A stretch of DNA of 64,000 nt from Candidatus Latescibacterota bacterium (lineage in GTDB: Bacteria > Latescibacterota > UBA2968 > GCA-2709665). The notes beneath the pieces were generated by a model, which was not told the DNA's origin, searched no databases, and saw only the letters and a program-made list of their open reading frames with translations. The stretch is from contig CBDCOX010000002.1 of the NCBI GenBank assembly GCA_965219995.1, positions 4,416,001 through 4,480,000 of the forward strand. Reading direction: 5' to 3'. Made by a program: the position numbers and the translations under genes. Of the stretch, positions 16,949 to 21,905 are shown piece by piece (position 1 is the stretch's first letter; each line of letters starts with the position of its first letter).

Positions 16949-17587
16949 CTATCCAAGCGGGCCGCCGCCGAAGAGGTCTTCTCCTTCTTCGGCGGTTTCT
17001 TCTTTGTTGGAGATGCCCCAGATCAGTCCGTGAGGATCCAGTTCGTTCAGAGGGGGGCTGTCGTAGTCCGGCTGGAGTTCGCTTCCGCAGATGGGACAGC
17101 AGGCATACGACGGATGATACAGGACGCCGTTGTTGCAGGCCTTGCAGGATTTCACCATCGTATCCAGCTTGTCGCCGCAGCGTACGCAGTGCTGAAAGTA
17201 GCCGTCGTAGGGCGTGCTCTCCCCGCACCGGGAGCAGGTCACCACGTCGTGCATGCCCAGTTTGTCGGCCGGCGGCTGCTCGAGCGAGATCGCCTGCCGA
17301 TCCGGCACGGAGACGTATTCGGCCTTGAACGTCTGAAATTTTTCGCGGATCTGGCTGGTCTGTACGCCCAGGTATTTTTCCGAAATCGTGATCGTGAAGA
17401 CCAGGTCGGGCGAAATGCCCAGGAAGTGGATGAGGTCTCTGGTATTCCAGTCCCGCTGTTCGACGATCGTGGCCTTGTGGGTTTCGCACAGGCTGAGGAA
17501 GTCCTGTATTTTTTTTCGGTTCTCCCGCCGCCGGCTGTTGTCTTCCCGTTCAAACTCGTACAGGGTGCCGAAGTCGATGCGGATCAT
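16949..17587 (-). CDS. Hypothetical protein with double zinc-ribbon (four CxxC) and acidic tail
   Basis: CSRC, CVRC, CKAC, CPIC; start overlaps uvrA stop (ATGA). Confidence 0.7.
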   Translation of the reverse strand: MIRIDFGTLYEFEREDNSRRRENRKKIQDFLSLCETHKATIVEQRDWNTRDLIHFLGISPDLVFTITISEKYLGVQTSQIREKFQTFKAEYVSVPDRQAISLEQPPADKLGMHDVVTCSRCGESTPYDGYFQHCVRCGDKLDTMVKSCKACNNGVLYHPSYACCPICGSELQPDYDSPPLNELDPHGLIWGISNKEETAEEGEDLFGGGPLG

Positions 17588-20355
17588 GGTTCGATCACCT
17601 TATTGAGAAAGCGGCCGGTGTGGGAGGCCGGCGCGGCGGCAACGCGTTCCGGGGGCCCCTCCGCGACGACCCGACCGCCGGAATCTCCGCCGCCGGGACC
17701 GAGATCGACAATCCAGTCCGCCCGTTTCACAACGTCCAGGTTGTGTTCGATCACGATGACGGTGTTGCCCTTGTCCACCAGCCGGTCCAGAACCGCGATG
17801 AGCGTCCGGATGTCCTCGAAGTGCAGTCCGGTCGTCGGCTCGTCCAGAATATACATGGTTTTTCCGGTTGCCACACGGGAAAGTTCGGCGGCCAGTTTGA
17901 TGCGCTGCGCTTCGCCTCCGGAGAGGGCCCTCGCCGGCTGGCCCAGCCGGATATAGCCCAGGCCGACGTCCGAGAGGGTTTTCAGTTTCCGCCGTGCGCC
18001 GGGTATATCCCGAAAGAACGTGAGCGCCTTCTCGGCGGTCATTTTCAGGACGTCCGCGATCGAACAGCCCTTGTACCGGATTTCCAGGGTCTCCCTGTTG
18101 TAACGGCTTCCCCCGCAGGCATCGCAGGTCACATAGACATCGGGGAGGAAGTCCATTGCAATCCGTTGCTGGCCGTCGCCCTGGCAGGGCTCGCAACGTC
18201 CGCCCTTCAGATTGAAGCTGAATCGACCTGGCGTATATCCGCGAACCCTGGATTCGGGAAGTTGCGCGAAGAGCTCTCGAATGTCCGTAAAGAGGTCGGT
18301 GTAGGTGGCAGGGTTTGATCGGGGCGTCCGACCGATTGGCGCCTGGTCGATCGGGATGATCTTGTCGATCTGAGACAGTCCCTCGATGGCGTCGTGTCCA
18401 AGCGGTACGGACGCGGCGTTGTGCAGTCTGTTCGCCAGCGCAGGATAGAGCGTCCCGTTGATCAGGGTGCTCTTTCCGGACCCGGACACACCGGTAACGC
18501 AGACAAGGACTCCCAGCGGAATCGTGACGTCAACGCCCTTGAGATTGTGTCCTCGCGCTCCCTTCAATACGATCCGGCCGGTGGGTTGTCTATTGTCGGG
18601 GGGCCGGGGGATGGATTTCCGCCCGGAAAGGTACGCGCCCGTGAGGCATTCCCGGGCGGCCATGATCTCCTCAGCGCTACCCTGTGCGATCAGTTCGCCG
18701 CCCAACTCGCCCGCTCCGGGCCCGAGGTCGATCAGATGGTCGGCGGCCATCATCGTCTCCCTGTCGTGTTCCACCACCAGAACGGTATTGCCGAGGTCGC
18801 GGAGCGTTTCCAGAGTATGGATGAGCTTGCGGTTGTCCCCGGGGTGCAAGCCGACACTGGGTTCGTCAAGGACGTAGAGCACTCCCGAAAGGCGCGTGCC
18901 GATCTGCGTGGCCATGCGAATCCGCTGCGTCTCGCCGCCGGAGAGGGAGGCCACGCTGCGTTCCAGCGTGAGATAACCCACACCCACGTCCCTCAGGAAG
19001 ACGAGCCGGTTGCGGATTTCATCCAGAATCGTGTCGACGACCTCCCGGGGTCCCAGCCTCCCCCTCAGGCGTTCCAAGAAACCGATGGCCCGATCGATAC
19101 CCATCGCCGAAACCTGCCCGATGTTGCAGCCGTCAATGGTGACCGCCAGGGCCTCCTTTCGCAACCTCGCGCCGGAACAGTCCGAACAGACAACGGTATG
19201 GACGTACGGTTCAGGGCCGGACCCGGCTTCATCCGACGCGGCATCCGCAACCCGCCGGTTGAGGGACGGGATCACGCCGTCGAATCCGAGGGATTCGTCG
19301 CCCCACAAGATGGCCTCCCTCGCTTCGGTCGAAAGGGAACCGAATGGCGCGGCGACGTCGAAACCGTACCGGTCCGCGAGGCGCCTGAGCAGATCGAGCT
19401 TCGCGCGGCCCCTGGGGACGCCCCATGGCGCGATGGCGCCCTCGGCAATGGAGCGGCCCGCGTCCGGAACGACGCCGTCAGGATCTACATCCGTCCTCTC
19501 GCCCAGGCCGTTGCAGGCGGGACAGGCGCCGTGCGGACTGTTGAACGAGAACAGACGGGGCGTCGGTTCTTCAAGCGTGACGTCGCAGTTTCTGCATATC
19601 AACTGCGTGGAATAGCTCTGCTCACGGCCTTCGAGCACGTCCAGGACGACGATACCGCCGGACAGGGCCAGCGCGGTTTCGAGCGAGTCGGCCAGCCGGC
19701 GTTCGATTCCCGGGCGTACGACAAGGCGGTCGATAACGGCGTCGACGGTGTGCGGTTCCGTCGGATCCAGGCGAATTTCTTCTTCCAGGGCCCGATCCCG
19801 GCCGTCGATCCGAACGCGCACGTATCCATCGCGCCGGAGGCGTTCCAGTTCCCGGTCCAGACGACCTTTCCGGTTTCGTATCCATGGCGCCAGAATTCGA
19901 AGGCGGGTTCCCGCGGGCATCGCAAGCACCTCGTCGACGATTTCGCCGACGGTCTGGCAGGCGATCGGGTTACCGCAGTTCGGGCAATGCGGCAGGCCGG
20001 CCCGTGCGAAGAGGACCCTGAGATGGTCGTGGATTTCCGTGAGGGTGCCAACCGTCGACCTGGAAGTTCCCGCGGTCCGACGCTGTTGAATCGCCACGGC
20101 GGGGGAGAGGCCGTCAATGCTGTCGACGTCGGGTCTCTCCATCACCTCCAGGAAACGACGCGCGTGGGTGGACATCGCCTCCACGTACCTGCGCTGTCCT
20201 TCAGCATAGATGGTGTCGAAGGCCAGCGAGGATTTTCCCGATCCGGACGGCCCCGTGATGACCACAAACCGGTTTCTGGGGATGTCGAGATCGAGGCCCC
20301 GGAGGTTGTGCTGGCGGGCGCCGCGTATTCGGATGGCGTCGTTTGCAGGTGGCAT
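17584..20355 (-). CDS. uvrA: Excinuclease ABC subunit A
   Basis: IRGARQHNL, GPSGSGKSSLAFDTIYAEGQRRY, zinc fingers, second ABC site GVSGSGKST, LSGGEAQRIKLA; ATG at 20355 preferred. Confidence 0.95.
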   Translation of the reverse strand: MPPANDAIRIRGARQHNLRGLDLDIPRNRFVVITGPSGSGKSSLAFDTIYAEGQRRYVEAMSTHARRFLEVMERPDVDSIDGLSPAVAIQQRRTAGTSRSTVGTLTEIHDHLRVLFARAGLPHCPNCGNPIACQTVGEIVDEVLAMPAGTRLRILAPWIRNRKGRLDRELERLRRDGYVRVRIDGRDRALEEEIRLDPTEPHTVDAVIDRLVVRPGIERRLADSLETALALSGGIVVLDVLEGREQSYSTQLICRNCDVTLEEPTPRLFSFNSPHGACPACNGLGERTDVDPDGVVPDAGRSIAEGAIAPWGVPRGRAKLDLLRRLADRYGFDVAAPFGSLSTEAREAILWGDESLGFDGVIPSLNRRVADAASDEAGSGPEPYVHTVVCSDCSGARLRKEALAVTIDGCNIGQVSAMGIDRAIGFLERLRGRLGPREVVDTILDEIRNRLVFLRDVGVGYLTLERSVASLSGGETQRIRMATQIGTRLSGVLYVLDEPSVGLHPGDNRKLIHTLETLRDLGNTVLVVEHDRETMMAADHLIDLGPGAGELGGELIAQGSAEEIMAARECLTGAYLSGRKSIPRPPDNRQPTGRIVLKGARGHNLKGVDVTIPLGVLVCVTGVSGSGKSTLINGTLYPALANRLHNAASVPLGHDAIEGLSQIDKIIPIDQAPIGRTPRSNPATYTDLFTDIRELFAQLPESRVRGYTPGRFSFNLKGGRCEPCQGDGQQRIAMDFLPDVYVTCDACGGSRYNRETLEIRYKGCSIADVLKMTAEKALTFFRDIPGARRKLKTLSDVGLGYIRLGQPARALSGGEAQRIKLAAELSRVATGKTMYILDEPTTGLHFEDIRTLIAVLDRLVDKGNTVIVIEHNLDVVKRADWIVDLGPGGGDSGGRVVAEGPPERVAAAPASHTGRFLNKVIEP

Positions 20356-20402
20356 GCGGGACCGGCGAGGCGAAACCCCGATCGGGCGACCGGGGCTTTG
20401 GA

Positions 20403-20469
20403 TGGTGCGGCAGGGAGGACTCGAACCGCCAGCCGTCCGGTTCGAAGCCGGATGCTGAACCACTGCCGC
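20403..20469 (-). tRNA. tRNA-Arg(UCG)-like gene lacking the D-loop (67 nt); functional atypical RNA or pseudo-tRNA
   Basis: Minus strand GCGGCAG-TG-GTTCAGC-A-TCCGG-CTTCGAA-CCGGA-CGGCT-GGCGG-TTCGAGT-CCTCC-CTGCCGC-A-CCA: 7/7 acceptor stem, 5/5 anticodon stem, 4/5 T stem, encoded CCA. Confidence 0.8.
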
Positions 20470-20483
20470 GAAGGCGTTGGACA

Positions 20484-20511
20484 AATATACCTTCCGCCGG
20501 TGCCGTTGCAA
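20484..20511 (-). promoter_or_regulatory. Putative sigma70 promoter for the tRNA-like RNA and uvrA
   Basis: Minus strand TTGCAA-16 bp-TATATT ending 14 nt before the first base of the tRNA-like element. Confidence 0.6.
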
Positions 20512-20615
20512 GCCCAAAAATCGCCACTTGACAATGGCGGACGAAATGGGAAAATTAAGGACTTGCCACAGCTGCGGTGAAATCCGAAAGCGGGCGTTGG
20601 TTCAGGAGGAAATCT

Positions 20616-21905
20616 GTGAACAACCGTTCGGCGGCGTTATTCGAAGCGGCGCAGCGGGTGATTCCGGGCGGCGTGAACAGCCCGGCGCGGGCGTTCGGCC
20701 CGGTGGGGGGCCGGCCGCTGTTCATCACGCGAGGAAGCGGGTCCAGGGTTTTCGATGCGGACGGGCGGGCGTATATCGACTACGTCTGTTCGTGGGGGCC
20801 GCTGGTTCTGGGCCATGCGCCGCCAGTCGTGGTCGAGGCGCTGAAACGGACCTGCGAGCAGGGTACGAGTTTCGGGGCGCCCACTGAAACAGAAGTCGAA
20901 ATGGCAGGGCTGGTCATCGAACTCGTGCCGGGTGTGGAAATGGTGCGGATGGTGAATTCGGGCACCGAGGCCACGATGTCGGCCGTGCGCCTGGCCAGGG
21001 GGTTTACGGGCCGCGAAAAGGTGATCAAGTTCGAGGGATGCTGGCACGGGCATGCCGACAGCTTTCTGATTCAGGCGGGGTCGTCGGCGCTCACCACGGG
21101 CGTACCCAGCAGCCCCGGCGTGACCGCGGGCACGGCGGCGGGTACCCTCACCGCACCCTACAACGACTTTGAGGCCGTTAAGCGGATCGTGGCGGAGAAC
21201 CCGGACGAGATCGCGGCGGTCATCGTGGAGCCGGTGGCCGGCAATATGGGCGTGATTCCGCCCGCGGACGGATTCCTGGAAGGATTGCGGGAACTCACCG
21301 CGGATTCGGGGATTGTGCTCATATTCGACGAAGTGATCACCGGATTCAGGGTTCATCCGGGAGGCGCCCAGGCCTTATACGGGGTCACGCCCGATCTGAC
21401 CACGCTCGGCAAGATTATCGGAGGCGGGCTTCCGGTGGGCGCATTCGGCGGCAGGCGGGAGATCATGTCGCATATTTCGCCACTCGGAAAAGGGGTATCG
21501 CAGGCCGGGACCCTTTCCGGAAATCCCCTTGCGATGACAGCGGGTTACGAGACGCTCATGCAGCTCCGGGAACCCGGCGCGTATGAATCGCTGGAGGGCA
21601 AAGCAGCCGCCCTGGAGGCCGGCTTCCGGGAAAACCTGAGGTCGCTCGGATTGCCGTTTCGCCTGAACCGGGTCGGGTCCATGATGACCATGTTCTTCAC
21701 GGACCGTCCCGTGACGCGATACGAGGCCGCCGTCGCGTGCGACCAGGAGGCTTTCGCGCGTTACTTCCGGCTGATGCTGGAACAGGGCGTCTATCTGGCG
21801 CCCTCGCAGTTCGAAGCGACCTTTGTCTCGCTGGCGCACACCGAAGCGGATATCGAGCGAACGATTGAAGCGCAGCATACGGCATTGAAGTCATGCGCAG
21901 CCTGA
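20616..21905 (+). CDS. hemL: Glutamate-1-semialdehyde 2,1-aminomutase
   Basis: [50 protein letters not shown]; AGGAGG RBS before GTG 20616. Confidence 0.95.

Follow-up and report, generated by a model that had tools for sequence, protein, structure and literature searches.

The 67-nt tRNA-like element that precedes uvrA in this genome is most probably (about 0.8 by our estimate) a dead tRNA-Arg gene in the uvrA leader, and neither a working tRNA nor a trans-acting mimic. It is a case of ordinary gene decay, with an old loss of the D-loop, in uncultured sponge-associated bacteria. In the window, i.e., the whole 64-kb stretch of DNA analyzed, the element occupies positions 20403..20469 of the minus strand, with its 5' end at 20469 and its CCA end at 20403. 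The first-pass annotation, made from the letters alone, had described a 67-nt tRNA-like element with the anticodon UCG, an encoded CCA and no D-loop, and this is confirmed by a match to the Rfam tRNA family RF00005 of 44.8 bits (gathering score 29; E = 2.6e-06 in the 64-kb window) and by intact 77-nt orthologs in two related species (G012 and G013).

Structure and origin of the truncated gene

In the window copy, all seven pairs of the acceptor stem and all five of the anticodon stem can form, the latter enclosing the loop CUUCGAA (anticodon UCG, A37), while the T-loop reads UUCGAGU, the variable loop has 5 nt and the discriminator is A. The first-pass annotation had these stems and loops right, leaving unmentioned a C-U mismatch in the middle of the T-stem, which is flagged in the NC line of the cmscan output. 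A 10-nt linker stands where tRNA positions 8-26 belong, and in the Rfam alignment a single nucleotide replaces nine D-loop model positions; the D stem-loop with G18 and G19, needed for a four-arm cloverleaf, is absent. Compared with the intact orthologs of G012 and G013, the window copy shows eight substitutions and one gap of 10 nt, so the loss of the D-loop proposed earlier stands, its size of 9 nt does not. The junction of the deletion, ambiguous by 1 nt, was placed at 20455..20456 (minus strand) using the intergenic alignment of 15 species. The deleted stretch takes in G18, G19 and A20. In E. coli, A20 and C35 are the identity bases for ArgRS, and the window copy keeps the base at the second of these positions, C35. 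Among the 47 Rfam tRNA matches in the 5.44-Mb genome, the relic scores lowest, and ARAGORN makes no call at its site, either in the 64-kb window or in the whole genome. The relic also lies within a TTG-started upstream ORF (17584..20517), which was rejected as coding because the length differences of the element between species (66, 67 or 68 nt) break the frame.

Because the genome was assembled from a metagenome, the truncation might be taken for an assembly or sequencing artefact of one metagenome-assembled genome. That reading, to which we give next to no credence, is already refuted: representatives of 12 species are truncated, several of them listed as single-contig genomes, and the truncated form is found gap-free in an independent sponge-metagenome run of another study (X7 record 22, covering 20400-21052). 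Another run, X1, carries the truncated form as well, but the window itself may derive from it. All runs with this stretch are metagenomes of sponge, coral or marine origin.

The history of the locus was followed through a search of 61 related genomes, from which 20 loci were examined, 15 of them representing the species of the genus. The spacer is present in all 14 other species of the genus, and the 3' two-thirds of the element were matched (E <= 0.01) in most of the genomes from the family and order, 52 of the 61. The gene order hemL / tRNA / uvrA is found in every one of the 15 species; at the outgroup loci, uvrA follows an intact tRNA in four of five (L016-L019), in two of which, L016 and L017, hemL was detected on the other side. 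At the site of the relic, a normal 76-77-nt tRNA-Arg(UCG) is present in G012, in G013 and at all five outgroup loci (L016-L020), and the truncated form of 66-68 nt without a D-loop in 12 of the 15 species of the genus, the window included. The remaining species, G008, has a full D-arm, but its gene is split by a repeat element of 163 nt. The relic is thus the ortholog of an intact tRNA-Arg(UCG), and the deletion is a derived state common to 12 species. The first-pass annotation had also considered a retained tRNA mimic; the full D-arm at the exact site in G012, G013 and the five outgroup loci speaks against this, as does the decay of the stems and the anticodon across species (see below).

The tRNA models separate the two forms clearly. 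All seven intact copies score 67.7-69.3 bits with Rfam and the intact genes are called by ARAGORN. Five of the 12 truncated copies are listed by Rfam at E <= 0.01, with 38.7-47.3 bits and all above the gathering score, the other seven are not among the matches at that threshold, and ARAGORN calls a single one of the 12. Since Rfam can score such relics above its threshold, annotation pipelines could report them as tRNAs. Across a set with one genome for each of 185,579 species, the pattern of the truncated form was found at nine loci, all but one placed in the Latescibacterota group. The near-invariant promoter block upstream of the relic (see below) had no locus in the JGI metagenome contigs.

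In a tree of UvrA and HemL rooted with the outgroups, 11 of the truncated species form one clade (support 0.85), and the twelfth, L005 (the locus of G003), groups with an intact species as its sister (support 0.98). The sister clades that share the deletion differ by 36-44% at four-fold sites. The earlier suggestion of a recent deletion within a tRNA gene therefore holds for the deletion, which is old. The relic of L005 has U8C and the pair C29-G41 as in the other truncated alleles, with flanks of the intact type, which suggests a short recombination patch or a parallel event. Along the same lines, the non-sister species G010 and G007 share the changes G31-to-T and C66-to-T. These common changes, along with the L005 allele (L005 1590-1655; L002 1564-1630; L011 1595-1661), suggest short recombination patches between species, or parallel changes.

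The element that interrupts the gene in G008 is 163 nt long, has terminal inverted repeats and sits in the D-stem of tRNA-Arg(UCG) (L015 1604-1766). Matches to it were found 13 times in G000, 38 times in G008, 41 times in G013 and 16 times in G012 (e.g., the copy at G000 C2:1038930-1039089), and it looks like a miniature inverted-repeat family belonging to this genus.

Sequence change in the truncated copies and arginine decoding

A working tRNA under purifying selection keeps its anticodon and its universal bases fixed and compensates changes in its stems, and the truncated copies do none of these. The anticodon UCG is replaced by ACG in G010 and by UUG in G009, U8 has become C in eight of the 12 copies, and position 55 of the T-loop is altered in two. 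Position 37 is G in the intact genes and A in the window copy. Mismatches in the acceptor or T-stem occur in five of the 12 copies, and in G004 three of the seven acceptor pairs are broken. Over all truncated copies, 19 of 204 stem cells are unpaired and only two contain double changes; the pairing of 90.7% is matched by the 90.4% of shuffles (214 of 500 shuffles were at least as high). The spacer alignment that had been proposed earlier as a check for covarying stems thus gives no covariation signal among the 12 truncated copies. In the intact copies (n = 7), each of the two observed stem changes is matched by a compensating change in the opposite strand of the stem. No alternative fold is common to the truncated copies, and their predicted minimum-energy folds differ species by species. 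A shifted helix, CCGUC/GACGG, which arises with G31-to-U in G010, G005 and G007, was considered as a new structure and dropped as a general feature because it is absent from the other nine copies.

Evolutionary rates were estimated by partitioned maximum likelihood on the 11 truncated taxa of clades A and B, on the tree of the flanking genes, so that recombination between species could distort them. Against four-fold sites (rate 2.88, set to a ratio of 1), the non-coding spacers evolve at 3.06 (1.06x, LRT 0.15), and the partition of the D remnant, the anticodon arm and the variable loop at 2.41 (0.84x, LRT 1.26), a rate not different from neutral. The acceptor and T arm with the terminal ACCA evolve at 1.13 (95% CI 0.73-1.65; 0.39x, LRT 26.4), the trailer, hairpin and leader at 1.01 (0.35x, LRT 41.7), and the promoter block at 0.38 (0.13x, LRT 78.6); the promoter and the hairpin are thus more conserved than the relic itself. 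The division of the relic into a neutral and a constrained half was chosen after the alignment had been seen, and it is only approximate because, by parsimony, low rates are also seen in the anticodon loop (0.38x) and in the 3' strand of the anticodon stem (0.27x). The 0.84x partition is dominated by the fast D remnant and the 5' strand of the anticodon stem, and by parsimony it is positions 7-31 that are fast. The parsimony count for the whole relic is 64 changes over 67 sites, versus 1.5 changes per site at 54 four-fold sites. Some parts do not change at all: the 12 truncated copies agree in their first six bases and in the CCA, and all 15 species in the three bases that follow it; five of the seven T-loop positions are invariant as well. 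The length is kept at 66-68 nt in all 12 copies despite up to 44% divergence at four-fold sites. In the acceptor/T-arm half, constraint is relaxed but not zero.

With these data, it can be asked how well the element would serve as a working tRNA-Arg that lacks a D-arm, or as a trans-acting mimic (a decoy for anticodon nucleases, for instance, or a non-ribosomal adaptor). The window copy, taken by itself, invites such a reading, as it combines perfect acceptor and anticodon stems with a canonical T-loop and an encoded CCA, and a well-conserved promoter lies upstream. Across species the picture is a different one. The anticodon is UCG, ACG or UUG depending on the species, with a further variant in an RNA contig, which counts against the decoy and the adaptor put forward in the first-pass annotation; the partition that contains the anticodon arm shows a neutral rate; substitutions occur at U8 and at positions 37 and 55; and A20, an identity base for the E. 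coli enzyme, is in the deleted stretch. Also, the minimum-energy folds differ in each species, and even for the 67-mer of the window the minimum-energy structure is not the cloverleaf, its folding energy reaching only z = -1.96 against shuffles. We consider a working tRNA or a trans-acting mimic very improbable.

The decoding capacity of the genome fits the preferred reading of a dead tRNA gene. Its arginine tRNAs have the anticodons ACG, CCG, UCU and CCU, with no other UCG, and a match to tadA is present (161.3 bits, cut-off 150). CGA makes up 12% of the arginine codons in 1482 long ORFs. This codon is decoded by the inosine-modified ACG tRNA, and the earlier remark that CGA is usually read by tRNA-Arg(ICG) is borne out for this genome: since tRNA-Arg(ACG) and tadA are both present, CGA can be read by the modified tRNA and the tRNA-Arg(UCG) gene is redundant. 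The gene split in G008 is a second, independent inactivation. Two distinct lesions within one genus, a deletion and an inserted element, fit a dispensable gene.

Three further odd tRNAs were called by ARAGORN in the genome of the window, G000 (C2:298817-298895, 603983-604068 and 3411283-3411358), namely a Leu(cag) whose anticodon begins at position 38, a tRNA of undetermined type and a Ser(cga) of 76 nt. All three are missing from the Rfam tRNA matches at E <= 0.01, and they may be false calls or further relics.

The uvrA leader and a possible residual role

The relic stands between a promoter-like site and uvrA. The site, TTGCAA-16-TATATT (20484..20511, minus strand), lies 14 nt upstream of the relic, and the sigma70-like promoter that had been noted there at first sight was recovered by the promoter scan. 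Two sigma-70-like sites were found in the region, compared with 0.1 expected from shuffles; the second, TTGACA-16-GAAAAT with a TG extension (20528..20555, plus strand), is divergent, faces hemL and falls within the near-invariant part of the alignment. The -10 hexamer of the relic promoter is unchanged among the 11 truncated species of clades A and B, its -35 hexamer has one change, and across all 15 species of the genus the promoter block hardly varies. The block of ~26 nt between the two -35 hexamers (20512-20545, with a T run) is almost invariant in the 15 species, more conserved than the leader of either uvrA or hemL, and may be an UP-like element or the site of a regulator.

Downstream of the relic, the leader contains a terminator-like hairpin (20372..20399, minus strand), seen in the leader fold, with an 8-bp G+C-rich stem, a 4-nt loop and 3-4 U; its 5' strand has no change in 11 species. 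The uvrA leader as a whole folds no better than shuffles (z = -0.33). The uvrA coding sequence (17584..20355, minus strand) was taken from the ORF list, with its ATG set by the conserved N-terminus MPPAN..IRIRGARQHNL in the translations of 15 species. The CCA end of the relic (20403) is separated from this ATG (20355) by 47 nt, so that uvrA does adjoin the element as first described, at a distance one nucleotide short of the ~48 nt given then. At the uvrA start, a purine-rich ribosome-binding site is missing, and the leader at 20356-20371 is C-rich (GCCUCSCC..).

On the other side, the gene for a glutamate-1-semialdehyde aminomutase-like protein (20616..21905, plus strand, within the ORF 20577..21905) probably starts at the GTG at 20616, with AGGAGG 6 nt ahead and with a PGGVNSP motif conserved in the relatives; we take it to be hemL, from its earlier annotation and from its motifs. 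Its 5' leader (20556-20616 in the window, with orthologous leaders in L005, L007, L010 and L012-L015) exists in a short and a long form. The distance from the tRNA anchor to the LFEAAQ motif of HemL is in the range of either 205-220 nt or 272-402 nt; in L015, with its inserted element, it reaches 548 nt. Even sister species can differ in this respect, as L007 and L008 do. An extra sequence block of this leader is common to six species in the alignment, and it has no Rfam family at E <= 0.01.

By consensus scan, no sigma-70-like promoter lies between the relic and uvrA, and the sole promoter-like site on the strand of the relic is the one upstream of it, as is also the case in two outgroup loci. 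In addition, each of two metatranscriptome contigs (X19 record 11 and X20 record 16) connects uvrA with the relic, reaching into it from the coding sequence across the start codon and the hairpin. These are assembled contigs of a depth of about 3-5, from two runs of one study and from a related strain, and DNA carry-over is possible. They carry a G010-like allele with yet another change in the anticodon loop. The promoter region (20474-20596) is uncovered in both RNA runs and covered in the DNA runs. Together, these observations weakly suggest transcription of uvrA from the tRNA promoter, the relic forming its leader. The ends of the contigs (near nt 3 and nt 12 of the relic, and at 20634/20635 in hemL) were rejected as RNA ends, given that assembled contigs can show neither ends nor strands. 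From the one promoter-like site, the gap of 47 nt and the contigs of the RNA libraries, we infer that the relic and uvrA are co-transcribed.

These observations can be assembled into the following scenario. In the ancestor of the Latescibacterota family, a single promoter, tRNA-Arg(UCG), the hairpin and uvrA would have formed a unit. Within the genus, a deletion of 10 nt in an ancestor shared by two sister clades would have taken the D-loop, with G18, G19 and A20, and the tRNA would have been dispensable because tRNA-Arg(ACG) with TadA reads CGA and tRNA-Arg(CCG) reads CGG. Since then, the relic would have been carried along as the first ~67 nt of the uvrA transcript, with selection presumably preserving the unit around it, i.e., the promoter, the hairpin and the short leader.

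The slower acceptor/T-arm half would, in our interpretation, have no function in its own right but reflect a constraint that acts on the uvrA leader in cis. Given this slow half, the conserved promoter and hairpin and the contigs that bridge relic and uvrA, a role in the uvrA leader is therefore possible, albeit unproven. More specifically, the minihelix of acceptor and T arm with its CCA might have been kept as an exapted processing signal, at which RNase P and a 3' endonuclease would still cut and thereby leave the uvrA mRNA with a defined 5' end that the hairpin protects. We hold this to be a tentative reading. It would account for the low rate of the minihelix partition (0.39x neutral), for the invariance of the 5' six bases, of the CCA and of the three bases that follow, for the constant length of the copies and for the five invariant T-loop positions, and it agrees with the unchanged 5' strand of the hairpin right behind the relic and with the RNA-library contigs. 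It is harder to reconcile with the stems themselves, which are mismatched in five of the 12 copies (G004 with its three broken acceptor pairs being the extreme case) and lack a covariation signal, with the altered position 55 in two copies, or with G008, which tolerates a 163-nt insertion in the same leader. Moreover, the invariant 5' strand stays invariant where its partner is mutated, as in G004, which points to a constraint on the sequence and not on the helix. Other cis constraints of the leader, or recombination between species that distorts the rates, could also explain the slow half. All in all, a real remaining role of the relic in processing or stability appears somewhat unlikely, and a dead gene carried in the leader is the reading that we prefer.

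As a dead gene, the relic allows the death of a redundant tRNA gene to be mapped and dated across 15 species, and three outcomes can be followed within one genus: the deletion of the D-loop, the possible transfer of a dead allele to another lineage and the insertion of a repeat element. Should the slow half indeed serve as a signal in the processing of uvrA mRNA, bacteria would have a counterpart to the t-elements of organelles: tRNA-processing enzymes would mature the transcript of a protein gene by means of a fossil tRNA, and the case would illustrate the constraint that a tRNA-mRNA operon places on a dead tRNA.

Comparison with known systems

The relic resembles other bacterial tRNA pseudogenes in having an intact ortholog, a disabling internal deletion and relaxed constraint, with an isoacceptor that covers its decoding. 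It departs from them in its nearly constant length in 12 species, in having one half that evolves more slowly than neutral and in lying inside the transcription unit of a protein gene.

Some tRNA genes of E. coli are co-transcribed with protein genes, as in the thrU-tyrU-glyT-thrT-tufB operon or in secG-leuU. The arrangement at uvrA is similar in having one promoter and a tRNA that adjoins the mRNA, and separation of the two by tRNA-processing nucleases would be expected; however, at uvrA the tRNA is dead in most species of the genus, and the co-transcription is our reading of the promoter, the spacing and the contigs.

The mitochondrial tRNAs that lack a D-arm keep their anticodon and decode. 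They share with the relic a short replacement loop between the acceptor and anticodon stems (10 nt in the window copy) and the retention of the T arm; in contrast, the anticodon of the relic drifts, in a bacterium with a full set of normal tRNAs. In the mascRNA / MEN-beta tRNA-like family (RF01684), a tRNA-like fold whose D region is reduced serves as a processing signal. The relic resembles this family in form but is not a member, its match reaching only 16.4 bits (gathering score 42.5; E = 1.5).

In a limited search of the literature, which may well have passed over a case in print, we found no dead bacterial tRNA kept as a signal in an mRNA leader. A bacterial 't-element', i.e., a fossil tRNA minihelix as a putative cut site that would shape the 5' end of the uvrA mRNA, is in our judgment a doubtful proposition. 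The t-elements of plant mitochondria are reported to be tRNA-like remnants beside mRNAs that could define the ends of these through RNase P and RNase Z (PMC1920247). They are organellar and their ends have been mapped, unlike the relic, which is known from its sequence and whose stems erode in five of 12 copies; what the two have in common is a tRNA-like remnant right next to an mRNA, here that of uvrA.
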